Shown here: piece by piece, positions 34,481 through 51,775 of the stretch | Position numbering within the stretch: position 1 is the first letter of the stretch | Layout: every line of letters begins with the position of its first letter | From: Tubulanus polymorphus | Taxonomy: Eukaryota; Animalia; Nemertea | Length of the DNA: 64,000 nucleotides | Reading direction: 5' to 3' | Assembly (NCBI RefSeq): GCF_964204645.1 | Contig: NC_134025.1 | Coordinates: forward strand, 5,332,001-5,396,000 | Notes under the pieces: generated by a model | Told to the model about the DNA's origin: nothing | Databases searched by the model: none | What the model saw: the letters and a program-made list of their open reading frames with translations, nothing else | Translations under genes and position numbers: made by a program

Positions 34481-34678
34481 TACAGTATGAGTAGACTCCG
34501 CTCAAGTCGGATCGTTTAGACTGCGCCCAAGTCGGTACTTTGGGGACGGTAAAAATGTGTCCGACTTTAAGGATACCGAGTTGGATTTCTTAAAAAGTGT
34601 CACAAAAATATTTTAACGAAAATCCGAGTTGAACGGTTATCTGACGGATCCTCGGGGCTCGGGCGTAGTCCTCTTGTA
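34481..34678. mobile_element. Degenerate MITE-like element, possibly related to the 28684 element
   Basis: Begins TACAGTATGAGTAGACTCCGCTCAAGTCGG, contains internal inverted AAGTCGG/CCGACTT/CCGAGTT motifs, and ends GTAGTCCTCTTGTA. Confidence 0.35.
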
Positions 34679-35207
34679 TTATAGTGCATAATAGAAGCTA
34701 TTTGATACATGCAGTTAAATACTAACATAAAGATATATTTCTCGCCAATTTCAGAGTTTTATACACATCGTTCTGCAAAATTCCGCTAAATCATCATTCA
34801 TTTTTGCGCACATTTCGCTGGCTATCTATTTTGACTAATTCATATATGTTCAACTCATCTACGTATTATCGCGAACGAACTCGCAAGCATTTTCCAATTG
34901 GTGGATATTATATATTTGAAGCGAAGTTATATAGGTCTAGATATATATGTACTAATGATCTTAAAAATGTTTCATATTCGGCCTTGGCCCGAATACCTAT
35001 ACATTTACAGTTCAGCTTCGAAATATGAGAAAGTTGATTGATAATAAATGGATTGTGATATAAATTAGCCTTAATATAAATATTTTTATCGGCTGGATGC
35101 TACGTGAATATAAACTTTGTGTATATCAGTATAAGCCGTGTATTGAAATATGTATGTAGATAAAAAAATATCATGATGAACGATGTGCTCTTGGTCTGCA
35201 AATCGGT

Positions 35208-36289
35208 TTAGGTTAAAAGTGATTTTTCTTCAGCGTTAACTTTCTGAGGTATGTTGTACACGATCTCAACCTGAATTTTCGGGCGACAGCATGTTAATCG
35301 ACAACAGAATCCGGCTTGTACAATACACGCGATGCAATTTATACTTAAGAACACGCAACGAGCGACGAAAAGCGTTGCGTGATGGTTTTTGATGGCTTCG
35401 AATTCGTCTATGGGAGTTTTCTGGTATATCGTCATGCCTTCATCGTTCATCTCGTATCTTCCTGCATGATTCCACGCGTCGCCGAATTCTCGTATGACAT
35501 CGGTAGAGGCGAGCAACATCGCGGCGAAAGCCGAACCCATAGCGCCGATTATGGAAAAGACTAGACATGTGACATGTAGAGCCATGCGCGGAAATCGCCC
35601 GGCAACAAACGTGAAAATGGCAGTCACGAAGCAAAACAGCGTTTCTCCGTAAATGATGCTGGTGTCATTTTTTCTGTCTTTTGGATCCCCTGACATATAG
35701 ACGCTGTCGATGATCACCAAGGAAATACCACACATCAGTTGTATTGTACCGATGATGATGGATTTGCGGAAGAAATTCGACACACCTTCCCAATTCCCTG
35801 AAAAATAACGAGTCAATATGGTGTCTCAATATCAATAACGACTGGGATCGTGGACTGGTTGGCTCATTAGTGACCATATTCAATATTTAAATGTACATTA
35901 TTTTCTGCCAACCAAAACATTTTTTCGTGAAATATATTGTCAAGATACTAGTCCACGTAAATGTAGCTTCTTAGATTCTCAGAATTTCAGACTCGCAGAT
36001 CGCTTGGCCACCATCAGCGCTTGCAGTGAAAGTTTATTTTCTGTAAGATTTCCGTAAAATTTGCCCCCTTCCAAAAAGCTGATTCCGCGCCTGAATACTG
36101 CCATATATGCGTAGGATAGAACGAATAGAACTGACCTTGGCGAGGTTTCGTTAATACATTCACATTGCCAAATTCTGCAGATGAAATCTGAATGTGAAGT
36201 TTAGCTTCCGAATTTTGTTGTTGGGCTGTAACTTCATTTGAAATCTGGTGACCGTTACTTAACATTTCTTCTTTTTCCGCTGTTGTCAT
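35208..36289 (-). CDS. Four-transmembrane protein of the MS4A/CD20-like superfamily (2 coding exons)
   Basis: Exons 36289-36136 and 35797-35208 join in phase 1 (PRQ-G-NWEG). Four hydrophobic segments: IIIGTIQLMCGISLVII (CD20-like GxxQ motif), LFCFVTAIFTFVAG, HVTCLVFSIIGAMGSAFAAMLL, and VFLSINCIACIVQAGF followed by a CC..CC cluster. Confidence 0.72.
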
Positions 36290-37698
36290 ATCGGAGTTCT
36301 TCACTCTCTGAAAAGAAACCGAGAATGCATTTCTATTTACACAATTATAGTCTTACGTTATAAGAAAGTAACAAGGGATTCTACGAAGAATCTCTGATAA
36401 CGGGTGCTTCGAAGACTCGAAGTTTTTCCATCTAAGACAATAAATCCCGTACAAAGTCGAATATCAGATTTTACGCGTTTAGACATACCTACTTCCTATG
36501 GACTAAAAAACCCTCTATCACAGGGGTCTGGTTTTACGTACGAAGTCCTGCTGATAACTGACATAAGTGCATTATATACACCTGCGACACCAGCTGCTTC
36601 AGAAAATTATTTTTATATATTTTCATCGACACAGATAGGAAAGCACAATGCATTCAGGATTAGGACAACCAGGTCAAAAAATACCAAAGTACTCGATATC
36701 GGTCAGAAATGTCATTTAAAGCAAAACGACTTTAACAGTCGTCTTTTTTTCTGTTGAATTTAATGTGAATAGCAATTTCTATGAATAATCTTATATTGGT
36801 CTCTTCTTTCGTAGTAGCGCCATGTAGTCTGCAGGTCACAAAAAGCATATCAACAGCTTGGCCTAGTCATTTACTACACAATGTTGCTGTCTTTGTAAAC
36901 CGGTATTCATCGAGGGAGAGACAGTTGCAGTATATGAAAAGAGACCCTCGTTTCAGGGAGGTGTGAGCGACCAACTCTTCCCGCTCTGATTCGATTGTCC
37001 AAATGGACTTCGTTCGTACGTCACTTCGAATCTCTTACACCAGGATGTTAAACGTTCACACCGATTGTATGTATATATATGTCACAAGAATCCACGTCTA
37101 CTTGTCACAAAGCATCAAACCAAAAATTGAAAGTGATCAGCAGAGCAGTGGTAGTTATATTTGCATGTGTTCTATCCTATACGTACCGATCGAAAAATGC
37201 ATAGTCCTCAAGCAAAAAAAATTATCAACTCCTCATTTTTGCACTGCGCTAGAAACACCACCAGATTTTTTCATTGTCAATCGTGAACTGGCAGCGGTCT
37301 GGGGTGGAAGGTCCCTCCAACCCCCATTTTCTAAACATAATATTTTCATTACGTTGTTTCCCCAAGATGCCATTCTAGGGTGTATTTTTTGGGGTCCAAA
37401 AACATATCGCGTCACTATTTCGTGATAGAAGTTCATAAATTAGGTCCCCAAAATTCCTGGATCACAGAAGTAATTCCTGAATACAGTGGATACAGTAACG
37501 GGGATTCTTTTCCGGAATTTCAGTACTCTATAGATCACCTATAATAAGAATTTCCATTAGATATTCCAACGCAATTTGTTTTGTTTTTTCACCGTTTATC
37601 CAGGCCGACCCACATTGGCGCGTCTGTTGTGCTGCTGTATGATACTTTGGTTCAGAGTTTGCAAAAAACGGTTTATTCACAATAGTGTGAGTCTGAGC

Positions 37699-40600
37699 AT
37701 GAAAATGTGGTTATCCGTTGCAAGCATAGTTCTAGCAATAATTCTAGTGAAACCTGGAAGCGATGCTAAAAGAGCTGCAGGTAAGAAGAAATATTAAGTA
37801 AAGGATAAAAGTATTTCAGAACGTGTTTTACCTCCAGCATAATTTCCACGAAACCTGATTTTCATTAGCAATTTCAACCTAACAGATCTTACAATATATA
37901 CATAGGAAGCTCCCATCAGAATGTACCCAGAACAGATACTAGTGTGTAGGCAAGCGTTTTGTTCATCTCATAATGGTGATGATATCCCCTTGCTCATTTG
38001 GCTTATTTGAGACCTTTCTTGGTTATATATCGTCCCTTTGCGTAATCTACCCGCTGGCTACATCATGATCATAAAAGTATATTTAAATTACCTAGTACAG
38101 CTGATGATCCTAACGACTGAGTTAATCTGAAAGAAATTTGGAAATCCTAATTATCGTCAATTGTCGAGCTAAATTGTTCGTATTACATTTCTTCTAGACG
38201 ATTTCCAAGCTGACTCACCAAAACGATCCGTCAAAATAACGACTATTTTGGTAAGCCGTAACTTTAGTAGGAATGGTACAATCCTCTTTTGAAAATTATG
38301 TAAATCGCACCGATCTGTCAAACATTCAGATTTATGGTGTCGGCGGCGGAGACGAGTCGCGCATATTGAGTAAAACGAGTTATTCATTCGCTTAATGATT
38401 TATTTTCCTGTTTATAGTATAAAAGAATGTAAAAAAAACGACGAAAAAAGTTTAATTTTCATAACCTATATATTGAGTTTTCTCCCAAGATCGAATCGGT
38501 TGTAATTTCTGCTGACAAATGATTTTTTATACGTCCGTACATGATGGCAAACGATCGCACTAGCATGTTTGCAATGTCCTACATCTAATTCTTAAAAAGT
38601 ACGCATCTGATGTATGAGCACGCTCAAAGTATATGGGAACGAAACAAGACGTTCATGAATGAAACGAATTTGTGAAATATTTTGCCGTTCCATTAAACTT
38701 ATTTCATCTTTTTGTATTTCAGGCGGAACCGTTTATGATGAAGCGGAAAGACGGCGCTTACGAGGGCTACATCGCTGACTTGATCGATCGAATTTCCAAA
38801 AAAGCCAATTTCAATTACGAATTTCAGATTACGGCTAATGGAAGATACGGCGTGATTGATTCGAACACAGGGCTTTGGAATGGAATGATTGGGGAACTCA
38901 TTAACCGGGTTGGTCAAAATAGATATAACATTTTAACCCCTTCTACACGGAGTTCCTGAAGTTGATTATTGAGTTTCATTCCTCCCACGCTCATTTTGAA
39001 AAGATGTAAATTCTATGTCGCATGACTTCTCTTGAAATCTGCGAAAAGGTGTAGGAAATAAGGAGAGAATTAAAATGTTGCATAATAATCACACGGAGTT
39101 AAAACATCGTTTCAGAAAGTGGATATGGCAGCTGCTGACATGACAATAACTTCACAAAGAGAACGCATTGTTGACTTCAGTACACCGTTCTTGAACACTG
39201 GAATTGGCATCCTGATGAAAAAACCCGCTTCAGCTCGGCGTTCCTCGTTTGCCGTGTTTCAACCATTCAGGGCAGAATTGTGGTTTGCCATTGTAGTGGC
39301 TTACGTAGTAATGAGTATCGTTCTCTTCCTTCTGGCGAGGTTCGGTGAATGGCAACAATCTTTGGACGGAAAAGAAGAGAACAGATTTTCCTTAGCGGGC
39401 AGTTTTTGGTATCTATTTGGATCCCCGGGAAATGCAGGTAATGCTTTCTCATTTACTCCAAAGCAAGGATTATTATTCTTTTTGATATCTATTTCCTTTC
39501 ATTTTCTATCAAAGGTTGTAACCTGGTTCCGAATTCTATATCGGTGCGGATCATTAGTTCTACATGGTGGATTTTCTCATTTTTCGTTTTGGGAGCTTAC
39601 GTGGCAAAACTATTTCCGTTTCTGACTCCAGAACGTTTAATGACGCCATCCACCTCACTCACCGCTGAAGACTTGTCAAAGCAGACTTTTATCAAATATG
39701 GCACAATATATCGTGGATCAACATGGGAGTTTTTCAGAAACGTAAAACAAAATATGATTTATTCAAGCCCAACGCACCTGACGTCAGGGGAACACGAAAT
39801 ACAGAAACACGGAATCAAACAAGTTTGATCTTGGAAACATTATTACCCGAAACCATGTTTCCCGCTTCTCGTAAACGCACACGAAATAGGGAAACGCTCG
39901 GGAACATGTTTTTGTCTCCTGTTTCTGTTTCCCATGCGTCGTGTGAGTTGGGTTTTACGAAATGAGTGATTTCCATTTCATCATCTTCGTTGCTTTTTTT
40001 CAATGTTTTTTCTTCGATCGTTTCAGTCCCGTGTTGAGGTATATTCGCGAATGTATAGATTCATGGAAAGCAGCCGACCATCGGTTTACGTGAACTCTAC
40101 GAAAGAAGGCATCGAACGCGTAAAACGAGGCTACTACGCATTTTTGACCGAAGCACATACCATTACATACCACACGCGAAGGGATTGTTCATTAATGCAA
40201 GCTGGGGGTTATCTAGATTCCAAGGGCCTAGGATTCGCATTTCCAATAGGTATAACCTTCGACAATTTATCATATATGTATAAGCGACTAGATTAGTTGG
40301 AATTGCAATGACAATTTGTTGCTCAATAGATACGTATCTAAGCCCGGCGCACACCTTTACGATTGGTCGTATGATCGCATATTTTCGTATCATCGTAAAA
40401 GTGTGAAATGGCATCCGGAACCGATTTCATCGTATCATCGCATGCGATCATACGATGGTCGTAAAGGTGTGCGGCACAGACATATTATTGACTGATAGGT
40501 ATCTACAGTGCGATATGTATATATTTACTGAAAGTGATTTATTTCCTTATTCTCAAAACATGCTTTGCGTGCAAATTCTAACAGCTTTCTTATGTATGTC

Positions 40601-41106
40601 TTATTCTATATCAAGGATCTCCGCTGAGACAAAATGTATCATCAGCAATATTGATGTTGGCGGAAAGTGGCGTCTTACAGATGTTGTACAATAGATGGTT
40701 TATCGAGCCCGCTAGATGTGAAACTGGTCAAGACAGTTCAGACTCCTCTGGATTTGTAATAGGAGCTCATGGTGTCCATCCCTTATTTGGTATTCTACTA
40801 GGCGGATTGGGCCTGGCGGGCATCGTTGCCATATTTGAAATGCTTTGCATAGCTCGTAGAAAGTCAAAACAAAACAAGGTTTCTATCGACATTCTCTCAA
40901 ACTTCGTGGTGAACTCAATGTTTTCGTAATGAAACTGTTACCGAAAGATAAGCGAATACATTTAAATATATTTTGGTTTTTAGGTGCCATTTTGCGACCA
41001 GGTCTCCTCGAATATGCGTCAGTTGGTGGCATCGTGCTGTTCATCGACACGAATACAACAGATGGCGGCATTTGACAATTCTGATAAACTGACAGAAATT
41101 TCATGA
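37699..41106 (+). CDS. Divergent ionotropic glutamate receptor-like subunit lacking the amino-terminal domain
   Basis: Exons 37699-37780 (signal peptide), 38198-38250, 38723-38908, 39116-39437, 39515-39741, 40027-40249, 40616-40878, 40984-41106, all in frame. S1 (KITTILAEPF, YEGYIADL, WNGMIGEL, TITSQRERIVDFS), M1-M3, S2 (KYGTIYRGST, YAFLTE, DCSLMQAGGYLDSKG) and M4 are present. Confidence 0.9.
39765..39955. mobile_element. MITE-like element with imperfect TIRs (PIF/Harbinger-like ends) in an iGluR intron
   Basis: Left AAGCCCAACGCACCTGACG..GGAACACGAAA versus right reverse complement AAACCCAACTCACACGACG..GGAAACAGAAA. Internal repeated GAAAC/GTTTC motifs. Confidence 0.65.
40341..40476. mobile_element. 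Palindromic MITE-like element in an iGluR intron
   Basis: CGCACACCTTTACGATTGGTCGTATGATCGCAT ... ATGCGATCATACGATGGTCGTAAAGGTGTGCG, about 32-bp inverted arms. Confidence 0.75.
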
Positions 41107-42697: not shown

Positions 42698-45600
42698 TCA
42701 TGCGTACAGTTCTCGACCCGGCACTGCCGTGTGGCTGGGAACTAGTCCGGTTAATGGTACGGATAAATTCATCCCATTGTCCATGATATCATTTTGAGTA
42801 GGTCTTTTCTTAGCCGGCTTTTTGGACGAACTAAAACAGCGAATTGCGAAACGGAATTCTTTGCCCATTTCGGTACATATGGAATCCTGAAACGATTCAT
42901 TGAACCAGCATGTGTGAATAATCAGAAAATTGGAAAATATACGAAGGATAATATGTGTAGTGGACATTGATTTACCTTTTTATACCCTGGATCCACTCTT
43001 TGTCCGTACAAATCTATATTATTCTACAAAAAGACATTTGAATGAAAATGAGTGTCTCTTTCAATGATTTAATCATTCTGTGTTCAAAATCAATTTAGAA
43101 TGAAATAACAGCTTAACTGACTTCGTACACCTACCTTTTCGGCACGCGCGTTTTTGCGAGCTTTCCAAACAAATTCCATTATTGCTATAATTACAGATAA
43201 GAAGAGTCCAGCGACTAGAACAACAAATACGCCGCCCACATTTTCTACTCCAAGTTCATTCGCGTTCGCATCTTTCGGTTCGGCATTAGTGCATTTACCG
43301 CCGCCATCTTTTTCCTTCCACCACCGATTGTACAAAAAGTGAAGCTTTTGCGCTTCTTGTAATTTCAGAATGCTATCGGAAATAGCATCTCGATAAGGAG
43401 AACCTACGGATACAATTCAAGTAAGGTGTCAGATAATTAGATTTGAAATTAGAAAAAAACGAATCTCTTTTCCTAGTAACTCACCCATTGGGGTTCCTAT
43501 ACCATAGCCTTTAGAATCGAGAAGTCCGCCAACTTGCATAAGATCACATTGTCTTTGCGTGAAATATTCGTTCATAGTAGACTCCAATAGATAAGCGTAG
43601 TCACCGTTTTTAACTCTCTCTATGCCATGCTTCGTGGTGTTTACGAATACCGATGGCACTTCGTTCGCCATGAAGTTCCACATCCGTTCGTAGGTTGGGA
43701 TTTTTGACGACTGGAATTTTGATCGAAAAATCAGTTGCAACGGATTTCATTCATATGATTGGGGGATTCAACACATTTTCGTAAAAGAACAACTTACCCT
43801 GAAAAATGAAAAGGTAGAACCTCCCCAAATTGTGCCATATTTGATTTCAGTCTGCTTGGAGAGATCTTCGGCACTCTGAATCGGTGATATCATTCTTTCG
43901 ACAGTGAGGAAAGCGGCAAGATTTGCCGTATATGAAGAGATCATAATGAGCGTAAAGAACCACCATATTCCACTGACTATACGCGTTGAAATTGCTCTTG
44001 GTGCAACTTCAGAACCTGTAAGATAAGTCTTGTTTCAATCCATTTCCTAATGGGATACAATTATATCTTTCCGAGGAAAGACCAAAACAACAAATGAACG
44101 TCTCATCACGAAGGGGTTGGCGTGGATATGTTGAAAATAACAGTAATTATCAATATAGTATAGGTTCGTTGATATACATGTATCATTCAATGATTTCAGG
44201 ATCCTTCATGGTTTTCCATTACTGATTACGTATTTGATGACTATATATACTATATTAAGTTGGCATGATAAATGTCAGTAACTACACCCACCTTGTTGCA
44301 TGAGAGATCCAATTGTAAACCAGAGACTATTCAATATGGTGAATTGATTTTCTACGACATCCGAATCAGGATTGCACGGATGTGGATTATACCATTCATA
44401 CGGCGTAAATCTGGCGATAACGAAAAGTATTATGCTGACAATCGTGTACGCCGCTAACATATAGATCCATACATCGATAGACAACGGCGACAGAAACGAA
44501 AACAAACTAGGGTTCTTCTTGACCGGCTTCATGAAAATGACGCTGATTCCCAGGTTCATGAAGGGTTTCGTGAAGTCTATCACTTGTTCTCGCTGGTAGC
44601 TGATCGTAAGAGAAGCTACAGCCAAGTCGGCTCTCTGAATGATAAAACATGGAAATCATTTCTTATTAACATTCCTGAACATCATATTTCAACGACTATT
44701 GATGAAAAATTATGATTAAAATCAAGTTGATATTTCCTATAAAATCATTATATACACTGTCCAGAAAGACGTTACTTCTTAGGTAATTTACACATATTTC
44801 ACAAGCTGATTCATCATATATTCATCATATTCTGATAACTCAATATACGGTATTTCATTGGGGATTTTTATCAGACGTAGAAAAATACCAACGGGGTATT
44901 CAAGTGGTCCGCTATACGCTGTACGATCTGCACTCGGGATAGAATCAAGTGCTGCAACTGCTCTTTTTCATCGTTTTCATCGTCGGATCGCCAATGAAGA
45001 GGCATCTCTACGACGCATGTTGACATGAACATGGTATCAATGACGTTGCTCCAAAAACCTCGTCTCCATTGTAGTGAATTTACCGGGTTTTTATTTCAGA
45101 TCTATCCCTTACCTTATCAATCAAATCACTAACCATACCATTCCATTCCCCGTTGTCCATTTTCGCCCCGTATTTCTTGTCGGCTACAAGCTCGATGGTG
45201 TAGTTGAATCCAAGATCTGCGGCAATCTCTCTTAGCAAGTCAACACAGTAGCCTTTGAATCGTGCATTTCCTTTCAATGGTTCGCCGTTGATTGGTTCAC
45301 TTTTCATAACGAACGGGTCATCCTAATTTTGGTGAAAATACGACAGAGACAATTATTTCGATTGAAATCAAAAAGTTGTTACGATATGATATAAACTGAA
45401 TCTTCTATTAACACTAATGCTCAAATTAGTCCCGAGGATTGAACACCTATTCTAGGAATACAATGTGTTTCTTTGAAATACGGTTTCAGATTTTGAGGAT
45501 TAATCATTCGAGCAGAATCAAATTCTATTTTGGAAAGTATGAATGGTGCAGCGACGCGATTTTACGATTCAGTCGTCACGACATGTTGATGTGAATCGCA

Positions 45601-48600
45601 GTTTCCTCGTAGCCAATTTCAGCGAATTTGACAATGAATATACCTGGTAATAAGATAAAAACCCACTATCTACAGATTAAAAGAATTTAAAAACAAGAAT
45701 TTATTTATTCAATCTAAAATATATATAAGACACGACGTTTCGATCTCACCCTAGAGATCATCGTCAGGTGGCACCAATTCTTGTTTTTAAATTCTTTTGA
45801 TCTGTAGATAGTGGGTTTTTATGTTATTATCCGTTCACCACGTTTGAGTGTGTTTATCGTTCTAATATACCTGGTGTCGTTCTTACCAGAATAGTCGTGA
45901 TCTTCAGCGTTTTATTTTTCAACGAATTCTCTAGTTCGTGGCGATACGTAGAATATTCCTTTGATATATTGAGACCTTTGCCCGTCTCCCAGACACCGAT
46001 CTTTAATTAAAGGAGAGCACGCAGTTTTACAACGCTTGTACGTCAATATTTGACTAAACAGTTTGATGTGCGGAATATTAGGATAACTTTTCGTTTAAGT
46101 AAACGTAGGTCGTGTATAAATTGGCAGTTAAATCAAATTGTTAGGACAAGTAGAGAGATATTTTATGGGTTTGTCACGTTTATAGCAGCTATGAATCTGC
46201 GGCGGATGGCGATCAATGCATCTATATATCGGGTTTATGACGTCAATGGATTCGGAATACCTCGTTCAGTATGCCCTTTTTCGTCAGTTCAACTAGCTGC
46301 AACCGGAAATGAGAACGGAGACCTTTACTGTCGAACTTTATGTCTCCCGTTAGTCCTTTAATCTCCGCCTGAAAGAACATAGACGCGTTACACCATTTTA
46401 CACTCACAGAACAATGAGACGCTAATTAGAAGGAATAAATTGGAAGACTATGTACTGCTTCATTGAGTAAATATAGTCAAGTGGAATACGTAGTGCGATC
46501 GTAATGACTATATGTATCAAATATCTGGTAGTCTATTTAGATCGTCCGAAAGAAATAAACCAAAATATTTTATGAACCACACATAAAAATTCACACGTAA
46601 AATATGCAGTATTATATTGGCTAAAATCAGCAATAAATCTGTAAAAAGAATAATTGAATAGATATTATTGATAGTTGAATGAGGAAATGTTTTTAACGTA
46701 CCATTTTCAAATAGTTAAGTAAACTGCTGCCCTGTGACCAGGCGGTTCCAGCACTACACGACTGCGGGGTTACAGTAATATCCAATGCACCCGATAAAGC
46801 GTCCAAAGCTGTGGCAAACAGATGGACAGCGTCGTAGATTAGGGCAGTTTCCGTCTATAAAAGAACACTTTTCATTTATTTGGTGATACACGATGTTACG
46901 AGGTATTTGAGGGTATTTCAGAGGTTTAGGGGAAGCAGGGAGTTGGCTCCCAGAATAGAGTTAGCAGGATCAATACTTTCGAGACTTCAGTCGGCTGAAC
47001 CTCATTTCCCGTCATCAGTTCGTCATTTGCTAAATTCAATAAAGTCGAAATTTTGAAATTACCGACGAACACGCGATATCAATGGAAGCGTTTCAATTAG
47101 GTTTTACTGCTATCTACCAGTTATTACTTGATAGAAAGATGAATAGATAAAAACCTTCATTCCAACTGGGTTGCAAATTTCAAATTCAAATACGAACGAT
47201 TCTATATCAAATTCATTAATAGTCAATCTAATGTATCATTTCAGATATGTTTTCCACTTCTAGATTAAAAACCGTGTTTCCATCAACATTAAAACAATAG
47301 TCAAGTGCAAAATATGGAAAGTCGAACAATCATGCGATGATTTTACTCCATTATAGAGCGAAAATTGAAAGTAAACGATACATTAGCTAATAAAGAACTG
47401 AGTGCTGCGAAAACAAAATTCAATTTTCTGCTATTCAGTCCACGATATCGAGAAACAAAAGGACAAGCAAAAAGTCTGAATGAATATCTTTTTTTCTAAA
47501 ATAGAATTGAACAAGTATATGATAATAGAAATCAGAACAGAAATTGTAGATATCTATAGCTAATACTAATATAAACCGTAATCTGTGCTTTGAGAGATAC
47601 ACCTATCTCTCTCTCTGTAAATATATATATATACAGTCTAATTCATTATTAAGACAACACCACCAACCGTTTCTGTGAAGCCCGTTGATGAAATATTCTG
47701 TACAGCGAAAAAAAACAAAGGAAAACCAAAGCATAACTGGCACTGCATTAGGTTTATTACTACTCGCCTTCGGGTTGACTCCATATGTTAGAATATTATT
47801 GTTCATACATTATTCAATTTTTATCTCACGTTCCTTAGCTTTAGCCCGAAGGGAATTGAGATTTTCCAAACAAGAAAGAAATGTTACATTCTGTTTCCAA
47901 ATCTTATGTCGGCGCTTTTGATAATTCATCGAACGGATATATATCTATCTTTGCAGGTATGAAATATTTATACATGTACTGAAAGCAGTAGTGCAACTTA
48001 ACGTGACTTGGGCTTACCGAGACCTGTGAAATATGTCACCCATTATAAACGCACGATATTGTGTTACTGAAGTGCAAGTCGCAATCCAAAAACGTATGGT
48101 TTACGAAATCTATTTGGAACGATTCCATTTTGTTAAAAGTTTGATCGATTATCAGTATCAGATATGATTTATCTAACAAGGTTTCTACCTTGATTGTTGG
48201 TTTGCCCTCCATCGGAGAAAATGATCCGCTCATTTCTTCCAGCATCCAGTCACTCGATACGTCAGACACCAACGAGTTTTGAGGGTCAATGATTCGGTAG
48301 GAAGTTATATTCGCACCAACGTCTTTGAAATCATTCAGATCCAATATTCCCATATCCTGTCATCAAAAATGAGAAAGAAGGCTTTAGAACGGGTCGTATT
48401 TTTGGCTGAGAAGACGAGAGAAAATGACGTCATCATACAATCTACCAAAGTGGCGTAAGTGGGCCGCAAAACAGACAAATCATGACGGAGTCATTTGAAA
48501 TTACGCCCAAGTTATCATCATTATCATCAAAAGCACATTTGAAAGTGATTATGTTTTTTGTCATGGATAATGATGTCTTTCTAAGCACAATGCGGCGTCG

Positions 48601-51600
48601 GATGAATCAAAAGACTCGCACTCACGATAGGACTCTTAAAGCACTTATCTCTTTGGATGTATAATACTCACCAGCGTCGTGAATAAGTAGTGATAGTAAA
48701 ATGTCAACATTTCCAGTTGCAGAGCCTAAAAAAGACATAACTCATAAGGTTTCAAAGACTCATCAGTTCAATAAAATCGGCTAAATGGCAAATGGTGACG
48801 ATATGACGAATTGATCTCACGATCTGCTTAGTTAAGTCACACATAAAGTGTCAATTTACAAGCAGACTTATAATACACGTTGATTTGAGGACATGTACAC
48901 TGCTTACAAGACTACTTATAGCTACCGGCAGTTCAGATAGGAGTGTTATCCAACATCGACCACTACTAGCAATCAGTGTAATGGCCATATATGACAGTTT
49001 ACCTTGCAGTCAAGATGACATCAAATATTGGATACGTTAGAAAAAACTAGCACTACATTATCGAATCATGAATAAACCTTTAAGGATAAGTGTCCAAAAA
49101 TGGTAACTACCTCGCGCAGGACTTGTCTTATTTTGTCAACGCGACAATCAACGATTATTTTCGTTTCACCGCGGAGTTTCAGCTCTTTGAGTAATGGTTT
49201 ATATTGTCCATTGACGGCCTCTAACTTCCGAACAGTAATTTGGTATTTGCTCGAACCATTTTCCTTTTTCTTTTTATTGTTCGGATTTTTTGCTTCCAGT
49301 ATCGAGTGTAACCGTATTAAACCTGGAATGATATGTGCATGGGCATGATATTCATTGATCATGCTTTATATACATTTATTACATTATATTCATCTTAATA
49401 GAATTTCCAATTTGTTATTCTCTGCAAATACGTAGTCATAAAAGTTTCCGTGCGAATGACGGTCAAATAAATTTTCGCCTGAGATAGTTTGGTTAAATTA
49501 AATTAATTGCACACGGTATTCGCTGATTGCAGTTGCGACAGAGACGGTAATTAGTTTGTTGTCAAATTTCAGACGGCAAATGCAGCGCGGTGAAACAAAA
49601 TCCACATGGAATGATCATTATACTCCGAAAAGCATTACCGCTTCGCACGTGAATTCTCGCAATTTCATACCTCAAAGAAAGGTAATCGGAAAGAAAATAT
49701 TGACAAGACTAAGACTGTGCTTCTTCGTAGGCAACGACTTGACGCTTACCTTCGTTATCTTCGTACAAAATGGTGAACTTTTCCCACTTCAGTTCTTTCA
49801 CGATATCTACGTACGCTTGGCTTAGCGATGTGTAATGAGGATACAAATTAACAGAATAAAAATCTTTAAAGTTGCGGTAACTCCAGCGTGTTTCGATGTG
49901 CGGCACTTCCAGAGCGTCGCAGATCGACTGAACATGAGCGGACGACAGGCTGGACATCGGCCCAAATACGGAAGCCATGCCACTTTGAAGTAGATGACAA
50001 GCTGCAAGAATAAATGAACACCATGAATGAACTTAGAAATACCAGAATAATGGAAACTAATCAAATATAACATATATTTAAATGCATTACTTTTCAACTC
50101 ATTCTCATGCTTATCAGGAATCGTGCTAAGAAGGGCCAACAAATACGAAATTGTTTTCATTCAAGTATAGTAGATAAAGAATCAATCATAGATAGATAGA
50201 GAAGTGAGAACTTTTCAATCATTGTTTATCATACGTATATACATATATATAGATTCAATTTCTGTCTGTCGTCGGGCATTGATGCATATTCATCGGAGTA
50301 AATATTCATTCGTTCAGGGATCCTAGCGCCGACATTTACTTCATCTCCGGGGATTCTCAGGTCTTTTTACGACTAATGGGAAAAAAGATCGATGCGCATT
50401 TTCGTTTCTTACCTTTTCGAGATGTATGGAAGCTGTCATCTTTCGGCACCTGGGCTATTTCCGCTAGAAGCCTCGTATTCTTCAGGATATCTCGTCTATC
50501 ATTGATCTTATCAGTGGCATATTCAAATGCTTTTTTCTGACCTACGTTGTGATGTTCGAATATTCCACCTACGCGTTAGTAAAGGATACGATACTTTTAA
50601 TGTTTTTGATAATACTTGTGAATGAAGCTTGCAATTAAATACGATATGATTTTAGTTTTCCATCTCATATCCCAGCACGATGATTAACGTAAAACGATAT
50701 ACATAAAAAAACATTATCAGGTACAGATAATGCATTATTCCATATCGAAAGAGAACATTTAAGGGTTTACTTGGGATTTCATCAAAACGTACGTATGTAT
50801 GAAATTTTATTGGCTCATGATAGAAAAGGCGCATATATACAAGTCGTTTTTGATGAGTTCAGTGATAAAAAAAACCTTTTATTATCAATGACCATCAAGA
50901 TACTCGTCAGAGCACACAAAAGGCTATTACCACCGTATGCATATAATACAAACGAGCATTAACCAGTTCACATTTCAGTTCATCTTGATACGTAGCCTAC
51001 TTAAACTCCCGAAAACGAGAGCTGAATAATTGTAAAGAAGATTAGCCGAATACAAGATTAATTCGGTCGAATTAGTATGGAATTAATCATGACATTCAAT
51101 GAAATCATTACTGTTCATTTTTATTGGCAATCATTTTTTGCTGAACGGCGTTCGTCAGCCGTAAATTGACGTCGAGCAATTCCGTCAAATTCATATGACA
51201 GCCAGGCAGCGGTGAATGATGTTTTGTCGCTAACGCCAATCAAATACGTCGTTATATTGATCGAATCAAAATCGTAATTCTCTGTATAACTATTGCGTTT
51301 TCATCTATCGTTCGATAAATGCGTATAAACATTAACGACTTATGTGGTGTGTGCCGATATAATTCACCACATTGCAAAGATCCAGAGTTGTAAAATATAA
51401 AAACATTTCACAAGTTATTCTATTCAGCCTTCTTTGGTGCCGTTTATCGGAGTGACGTCACAGCGCGTCATAGTGGCCTTATCGAGCGAAGTAAAAAGTC
51501 GCAGTTGACTGCCATTAGAGGAACAACACACGTGCCTATCCAGCCACGATCTAATAATTGTTTCTTCTACGGCAAAGCTCCGAAATCAACGCCCGTCCGC

Positions 51601-51775
51601 AAACAAGTGAATCGGAGGGATAAAATTCCAATTAACCTCGGTCGTTTGGCCGGTTGAGAGATCACGACTTACCGATTTTGATGACTCGCTGTAATGCCGC
51701 GGATACACTAACACTGAGTAGCACCATTAGTAAGCCAATACAAATATTTCGCCACATCTTAGCCATGGAAGACAT
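42698..51775 (-). CDS. GRIK2: Kainate-type ionotropic glutamate receptor (GluK-like), full length with ATD
   Basis: Exons 51775-51673, 50568-50413, 50001-49750, 49322-49111, 48725-48672, 48356-48189, 46854-46702, 46368-46261, 46000-45887, 45322-45113, 44635-44292, 44015-43798, 43710-43485, 43403-43135, (43023-42976), 42886-42698. Kainate hallmarks: [80 protein letters not shown]. The symbol is approximate (co-orthologue of GluK subunits). Confidence 0.93.
45649..45863. mobile_element. Penelope-like retroelement remnant (inverted partial pLTR arrangement) with 12-bp target duplication
   Basis: AATATACCTGGT at 45637-45648 and 45864-45875. About 52-bp inverted arms at 45650-45701 and 45776-45828. 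Internal hammerhead motif plus AATAAA on the minus strand. Confidence 0.8.
45729..45772 (-). ncRNA. Minimal type I hammerhead ribozyme (PLE-type)
   Basis: Minus strand reads GCCAC-CUGACGA-U-GAUCUC(UAGGGU)GAGAUC-GAAACGUC-GUGUC: conserved core, 6-bp stem II, palindromic ACGU in place of stem III, GUC triplet, and 4/5-bp stem I. Confidence 0.75.

Follow-up and report, generated by a model that had tools for sequence, protein, structure and literature searches.

What does an ionotropic glutamate receptor (iGluR) become when it keeps its glutamate pocket, lacks the amino-terminal domain (ATD) in front of that pocket, and has both its pore and its gate rewritten? The question is raised by a gene at positions 37699-41106, forward strand, of a 64,000-nucleotide (nt) stretch of the genome of the nemertean Tubulanus polymorphus (NC_134025.1, positions 5,332,001 to 5,396,000), the whole of which is called the window here. 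Our reading is that the gene encodes an intact ATD-less subunit, likely of an old group resembling the Phi class and the kainate-binding proteins, and that this subunit is predicted from its residues to bind glutamate without opening as a channel alone; we give this reading a probability of roughly one half. Papers are cited by identifier.

The gene is real, intact, spliced, and ATD-less, and it has already been annotated by an automatic pipeline. Its eight exons have GT..AG at all ends and join into 1479 nt encoding 492 amino acids (aa) with zero internal stops. They are listed below; X4 is one of the sequencing runs (X1 to X4) whose contigs were compared with the window.

37699..37780, + strand: exon 1, coding part, with the start codon and a hydrophobic signal peptide, ending in a phase-1 donor; an X4 contig (37656-37778) joins it to exon 2
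38198..38250, + strand: exon 2 (53 nt), with a short linker and the start of S1, matching the 3' end of the last pre-S1 exon of the neighboring kainate-type gene
38723..38908, + strand: exon 3, S1 lobe including the Tyr equivalent to Y450
39116..39437, + strand: exon 4, with the T480/R485 motif (39137-39163), M1, the M2 helix, and most of the pore loop
39515..39741, + strand: exon 5, with M3, the gate, and the start of S2, the GST motif lying within 39712-39723
40027..40249, + strand: exon 6, part of S2; the E705 equivalent lies within 40141-40152
40616..40878, + strand: exon 7, end of S2 and M4
40984..41106, + strand: exon 8, with the stop after a short C-terminal tail; the spliced contig runs on to 41360

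The 492-aa frame is 100% identical to residues 21-512 of RefSeq XP_074643820.1 ("glutamate receptor 2-like," Tubulanus polymorphus, 512 aa), a record retrieved with exon 4 alone as the query. The RefSeq model begins 20 residues earlier, with an in-frame ATG (37639) whose context is the poorer one (T at -3 versus A at -3 for 37699). Contigs of X4 show 7 of the 7 exon joints, and those of X1-X3 show 0 of 7. A 1630-nt contig extends from the end of exon 2 to 41360, and another, of 153 nt, takes in exon 1 from 37656 on and reaches 30 letters into exon 2, these 30 letters being the whole of the short side of the exon 1-2 joint; exons 1-8 are thus covered by separate contigs, which cannot mark the transcript start. 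The initial annotation, made from the letters alone, had proposed this chain of eight exons with an open frame, and the splice-site ends, the uninterrupted frame, the RefSeq identity, and the X4 joints bear it out. A second haplotype carries four coding differences (at 40037 in X1 and X3, and at 40720-40721 and 40728 in X1, X3, and X4), with two residues changed and one codon silent.

The ATD of a canonical AMPA or kainate receptor is missing. Within the receptor protein, Pfam recognizes only PF10613, PF00060, and PF00497, with ANF_receptor absent, and a tblastn search of the window with the neighbor's ATD gave, outside the neighbor itself, a best E value of 1.7. Searches for ATD exons covered the 64-kb window and the X4 contigs. 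Because no loose contig ends occur in 34600-39200 in X4, no upstream ATD exon is seen. Absence of the ATD had been claimed at the outset, with transcripts carrying upstream ATD exons named as the observation that would overturn it; the X4 contigs show no such exon.

The ligand-binding domain (LBD) is well conserved. Aligned with GluA2, whose numbering is used here, the receptor keeps Y450, T480, R485, G653-S654-T655, and E705, upholding the claim that its glutamate-binding residues (T480, R485, S654/T655, and E705) are intact. Three changes had gone unmentioned: P478 to D, L704 to T, and Y732 to L. Every glutamate-selective receptor in the alignment of PMC13648236 has Gly at the first GST position, and the residues at the P478 and Y732 positions are variable there, so that glutamate is the likely ligand. 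From the GST motif, R485, and E705, we infer that the clamshell closes on glutamate.

Among columns with at least 90% conservation across 139 reference rows, the receptor keeps 35 of 38 in S1 and S2 and 12 of 19 in M2, M3, and the gate, versus 19 of 19 for the neighbor. AlphaFold2 predicts a normal LBD-M1-M2-M3-M4 layout (mean pLDDT, 84.1; pTM, 0.68) in which M3 stops just beyond its first proline, and Foldseek matches this predicted structure to AMPA and kainate structures. The S1-M1-M2-M3-S2-M4 order and the closest similarity to AMPA/kainate receptors are those of the AKDF subfamily, and the early judgment that the receptor lies on the AMPA/kainate side of the family was right.

The pore and gate depart from the canonical Q/R filter and SYTANLAAF gate:

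39419..39516, + strand, spanning intron 4: pore loop G-S-P-G-N-A-G, with Asn at the Q/R/N site, after Pro-Gly
39595..39621, + strand: gate AYVAKLFPF, with four of nine canonical residues and Pro at the lurcher (A622) position

Alignment with GluA2 confirms both motifs as they had first been read. Within M3, Val stands at T617, Lys at N619, Phe at A621, and Pro at A622, and a second Pro, overlooked before, stands at V626, four residues past the first. Pro also occupies the lurcher position in a short receptor of the hemichordate Ptychodera (P0148). A literature search for the N619K change found no paper.

The receptor has short relatives within its own genome and elsewhere. Two Tubulanus paralogues on another contig (P0007 and P0165) are also ATD-less and are 48-49% identical to it; they share its F-G-x-P-G-x-A-G pore pattern but carry G-F-P-G-K-A-G, with Lys at the Q/R site, and their gates have degenerated differently. 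P0007 was the sole clear outlier when 50% cluster representatives were searched exhaustively; protein searches based on words had low sensitivity (1 match among 150 candidates and 6 among 7998). Further short forms with signal peptides occur in Lineus longissimus, Glandiceps talaboti, Ptychodera flava, the frog Ascaphus truei ("glutamate receptor U1-like"), and others, and chordate "glutamate receptor U1" clusters rank first for the receptor in the ESM Atlas. Among 152 classified proteins, whose rows are related and not independent, at least 8 gate residues are kept in 0 of 13 short signal-peptide forms versus 82 of 90 full-length receptors, and Q or R occupies the Q/R site in 0 of 13 versus 72 of 90. 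The census rule left P0071 and the second half of P0008 outside the short class and 2 of 154 rows unclassified. Most of the other short forms have a Leu-Gln pore, in contrast to the Asn or Lys found at the Q/R site in Tubulanus.

Three of these rows have features of their own. The 989-aa P0008 (Lineus longissimus XP_064648822.1) is apparently two tandem ATD-less receptors merged by annotation, each with a signal-like stretch. An R-x-[K/R]-R furin-type motif lies between the signal peptide and S1 in P0008, P0124, P0173, and P0126 (Lineus, Glandiceps, and frog) and is absent from the Tubulanus short receptors. In P0090, which represents a separate ATD loss within the kainate rows, S1 comes nearly straight after the signal peptide and the first strand of the ATD, and Ile stands at T617.

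Phylogenies of the LBD and membrane region, which the initial annotation had named as the means of judging its suggestion of an independently originated compact receptor, were built with AMPA, kainate, delta-like, and U1 rows and rooted on three (or two) delta-like rows. The short receptors share a branch in the best tree of 5 of 5 analyses, with support of 55 to 97. This branch has a support of 0.97 in a FastTree analysis of 151 rows, an SH-aLRT of 93 in a quick PMSF analysis of 65 rows (where it holds 14 of 15 short rows plus the tick protein P0031), and 97/92 in a careful PMSF analysis of 28 rows; the fourth and fifth trees are considered below. The receptor falls outside the AMPA clade in all trees and outside the kainate clade in the best trees. 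It groups, with the same range of support, with P0148, P0124, and P0173 (short rows resembling the Ptychodera Phi protein GluF_Pfl by eye), and it shares a branch with the vertebrate U1 rows in all five trees, never as a supported sister pair. The 151-row set dropped 12 near-duplicates and fragments along with P0109, P0153, and P0031, the last of which was restored, trimmed, to the 65-row and control sets; the 28-row and 27-row subsets were picked by hand. The tick receptor P0031 (Ixodes scapularis KAM7307429.1), with a partial ATD and a degenerate gate, lies on the short-receptor branch and could be either a Phi-like gene of arthropods or an artifact of long branches.

Tail to tail with the receptor gene lies its kainate-type neighbor:

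42698..51775, - strand: full-length kainate-type iGluR of 16 exons and 940 aa, with an ATD and canonical pore and gate

The two proteins are 42% identical, and 5 of 6 downstream introns coincide, the sixth being offset by a codon. Only 27 of 68 four-fold sites are identical, indicating that the split from the neighbor is old, and the AU test rejects a clade uniting the receptor, its paralogue, the neighbor, and the other kainate gene of Tubulanus (p-AU 0.002). These two results rule out that the gene arose from the neighbor by a recent tandem truncation, and on such comparisons, the neighbor is not the direct parent of the receptor gene. The proposal of an independent origin therefore stands insofar as the gene is not a recent copy of its neighbor, but it is weakened because there are two ATD-less paralogues and because the gene groups with ATD-less receptors of another nemertean (Lineus), hemichordates, and amphibians. 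One old lineage of short receptors is favored, not proven.

Which described class would such a lineage represent? Vertebrate "glutamate receptor U1" is the nearest in build. The Ascaphus truei protein (XP_075460993.1) likewise consists of a signal peptide, a short stub, the LBD, M1-M4, and a short tail, about 480-490 aa in all and with no ATD; it too lacks Q or R at the filter tip, has a hydrophobic residue at T617, and falls on the same branch in the best trees. The two differ in that identity is about 35%, the Tubulanus gene belongs to a protostome, its pore is G-S-P-G-N-A-G rather than of the Leu-Gln type, and its gate is more altered (Lys, Phe, and Pro). We take U1 to be a kainate-binding protein. 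Kainate-binding proteins are about 50 kDa, lack an ATD but retain the full membrane region, and bind kainate and glutamate with high affinity without homomeric current. The Tubulanus receptor has this same architecture.

The Phi class (GluF) was defined within AKDF in PMC6307864, where Phi proteins lack Q586, some have weaker gates, and the class is called lost in vertebrates and protostomes; Phi is reported from mollusks in PMC8437780 and from lophotrochozoans in PMC12226733, and the term ATD is absent from both main texts. The receptor has no Gln at the Q/R site and shows lowered gate conservation, a combination that characterizes Phi without being exclusive to it, and it groups with the Ptychodera and Glandiceps short rows. 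By eye, P0148 corresponds to the Ptychodera gene whose number adjoins that of GluF_Pfl, one pore motif being common to both (supplement of PMC12226733), and GluF_Pfl has 472 aa with a 50-aa "ATD" (PMC6307864). Most of the original Phi proteins (10 of 14) have an ATD of at least 331 aa, whereas the Tubulanus gene has none, and its membership is indirect. Sequences with fewer than four gate residues were discarded in PMC6307864, a filter that the Tubulanus gene barely passes and that its paralogues would fail. Phi receptors are described as uncharacterized in PMC10861852, and our literature search, in which most subscription papers lay outside the scope, turned up nothing on the iGluRs of Tubulanus or on Phi receptors losing their ATD, and no work that connects Phi with kainate-binding proteins. 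Firm placement inside a described ATD-less clade had been named as fatal to an independent origin; the trees come close to this, but they do not place the gene firmly, and none of the papers found calls the group ATD-less.

The remaining classes fit less well. With canonical kainate and AMPA receptors (the neighbor and GluA2), the receptor shares about 40-42% identity over the LBD and membrane region, the glutamate contacts, intron positions, and the fold, but it lacks the ATD and has an altered filter and gate. Tuning ionotropic receptors (IRs) resemble it in having no full ATD, a divergent gate, and an expanded family. They are characterized, however, by divergent LBDs without some or all of the glutamate contacts (PMC2924276), whereas the Tubulanus gene keeps all the main ones (T480, R485, S654, T655, and E705), and its top matches are of the AMPA/kainate type. 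Its N-terminal stub is also shorter (about 40 aa, versus about 200 aa in most IRs [PMC2924276]), and it lies among kainate-type rows, away from the delta-like outgroup, whereas IRs are reported to be sister to Delta (10.64898/2026.09.30.755715). A search of 284 collected proteins for IR25a/IR8a motifs identified no IR sequence.

As to function, the protein would reach the membrane and bind glutamate, and its M3 substitutions (Val at T617, Lys at N619, Phe at A621, and Pro at A622 and V626) would leave the gate of a homotetramer uncoupled or plugged. The subunit would then act by one of two routes: as a brake, assembling with canonical AMPA/kainate subunits by way of contacts in the LBD and membrane so that they pass less current, or as a buffer, taking up glutamate at the membrane.

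Several observations weigh against this reading. The support for the short-receptor branch drops to 75/78 when only ligand-domain columns are used (the fourth tree) and to 55/87 in the long-branch control, which takes in other long branches and omits the paralogue (the fifth) and in which an exclusive clade of the five short rows is not rejected (p-AU 0.40). Kainate placement of the Tubulanus pair is rejected only at the borderline (p-AU 0.050), the branch includes a tick protein bearing an ATD remnant, and the trees hold no identified IR, Epsilon, NMDA, Zeta, full-length Phi, or named GluF sequences. The change at T617 in P0090 is similar, and such traits can therefore converge. The RNA basis is narrow, as X4 is one run of one study whose record carries no RNA label, the splice joints themselves being the RNA evidence. 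The haplotypes differ by two residues in the receptor, while the neighbor's two coding differences are silent (among the 40 of 47 differences listed, too few to judge). Moreover, tuning IRs with divergent gates conduct in heteromers (10.64898/2026.09.30.755715).

The tree results leave room for the main evolutionary alternative, in which an old kainate-type duplicate lost its ATD independently in nemerteans and the grouping reflects long-branch attraction and convergence, ATD loss with gate decay being a recurring event. The weak support in the ligand-domain and control trees and the borderline p-AU of 0.050 agree with it, as do P0090, a separate loss with a similar gate change; the Tubulanus pore, with Asn or Lys at the Q/R site and unlike the Leu-Gln of most short forms; and the tail-to-tail arrangement with a kainate gene in which 5 of 6 downstream introns coincide. 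These introns may, however, be ancestral to the family (PMC2924276), and descent from the neighbor's lineage is rejected (p-AU 0.002). All five best trees place the gene with the short receptors, and in the long-branch control, six other divergent rows fall on the kainate side. We consider this alternative doubtful.

The main functional alternative, which we think unlikely and which can hold together with the evolutionary one, is that the protein is a working cation-channel subunit with an odd gate, supplying a tuning-IR-like ligand site to a heteromer (e.g., in chemosensation), with the filter-tip Asn passing calcium. The predicted structure retains every membrane segment along with the M2 helix, the Asn at the Q/R/N site is of the NMDA type (PMC12226733), substitutions at the lurcher position are able to open a channel instead of closing it (PMC10861852), and the family is expanded, with three genes in Tubulanus and a tandem in Lineus. 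But the gate keeps only 4 of 9 residues, two prolines and a Phe stand at the predicted bundle crossing, and the gate differs even among the paralogues, whose Lys at the Q/R site argues against a conserved cation filter. That the gene is a decaying duplicate, still transcribed, is very improbable: its long branch and the two residue-changing haplotype differences point that way, but a protein 42% identical to the neighbor and 49% identical to its closest paralogue is encoded by an uninterrupted frame of eight exons and retains 35 of the 38 conserved LBD columns, splicing is exact, and the split is old (27 of 68 four-fold sites).

The surroundings of the gene include an antisense gene:

35208..38250, - strand: antisense gene encoding a hydrophobic membrane protein of 247 aa; its joints in X4 are 38126/38219, 36307/38092, and 35796/36135

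Its spliced 5' leader overlaps receptor exon 2, and receptor exon 1 lies within one of its introns, so that the two genes overlap head to head. The 247-aa protein looks, we presume, MS4A-like; searches in Pfam and PDB gave no match. On the other side of the receptor gene, an intron of the kainate-type neighbor contains a very high-copy repeat at 45648-45865 (bin depth near 60,000 in X1, with many loose ends). Positions 800-33000 of the window hold ordinary housekeeping genes, namely 2OG-Fe(II) oxygenase (AlkB-like), CCDC81-like, and LOH1CR12/BORCS5-like genes, as well as an ankyrin-LRR-kinase (Roco/LRRK-like) gene containing a 752-aa open stretch and what we take to be taxilin-like and RABL3-like genes.

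The value of the Tubulanus gene lies in the wider group of short receptors that it exposes; the receptor itself is of an ATD-less, kainate-binding-protein- or Phi-like kind that is already known, in an unusual pore and gate variant, and its natural Pro at the lurcher site offers a ready probe of gating. Kainate-binding proteins are an orphan group of unclear origin and function. Tentatively, and as something possible rather than probable, the short receptors may form an unrecognized lineage, as old as the bilaterians, of ATD-less, gate-dead glutamate receptors that brings together Phi-type genes of hemichordates and nemerteans and the kainate-binding proteins of vertebrates. If so, Phi would not have been lost in vertebrates, kainate-binding proteins would be older than vertebrates, and a dedicated non-conducting subunit, a glutamate sensor or a decoy, would have been kept since the protostome-deuterostome split. 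If the short receptors are one lineage, the puzzles of the kainate-binding proteins and of Phi would merge into a single one, testable across several phyla. Even if they are separate lineages, the joint occurrence of ATD loss and gate decay in all 13 short forms points to a repeated route from an ion channel to a non-conducting glutamate binder.

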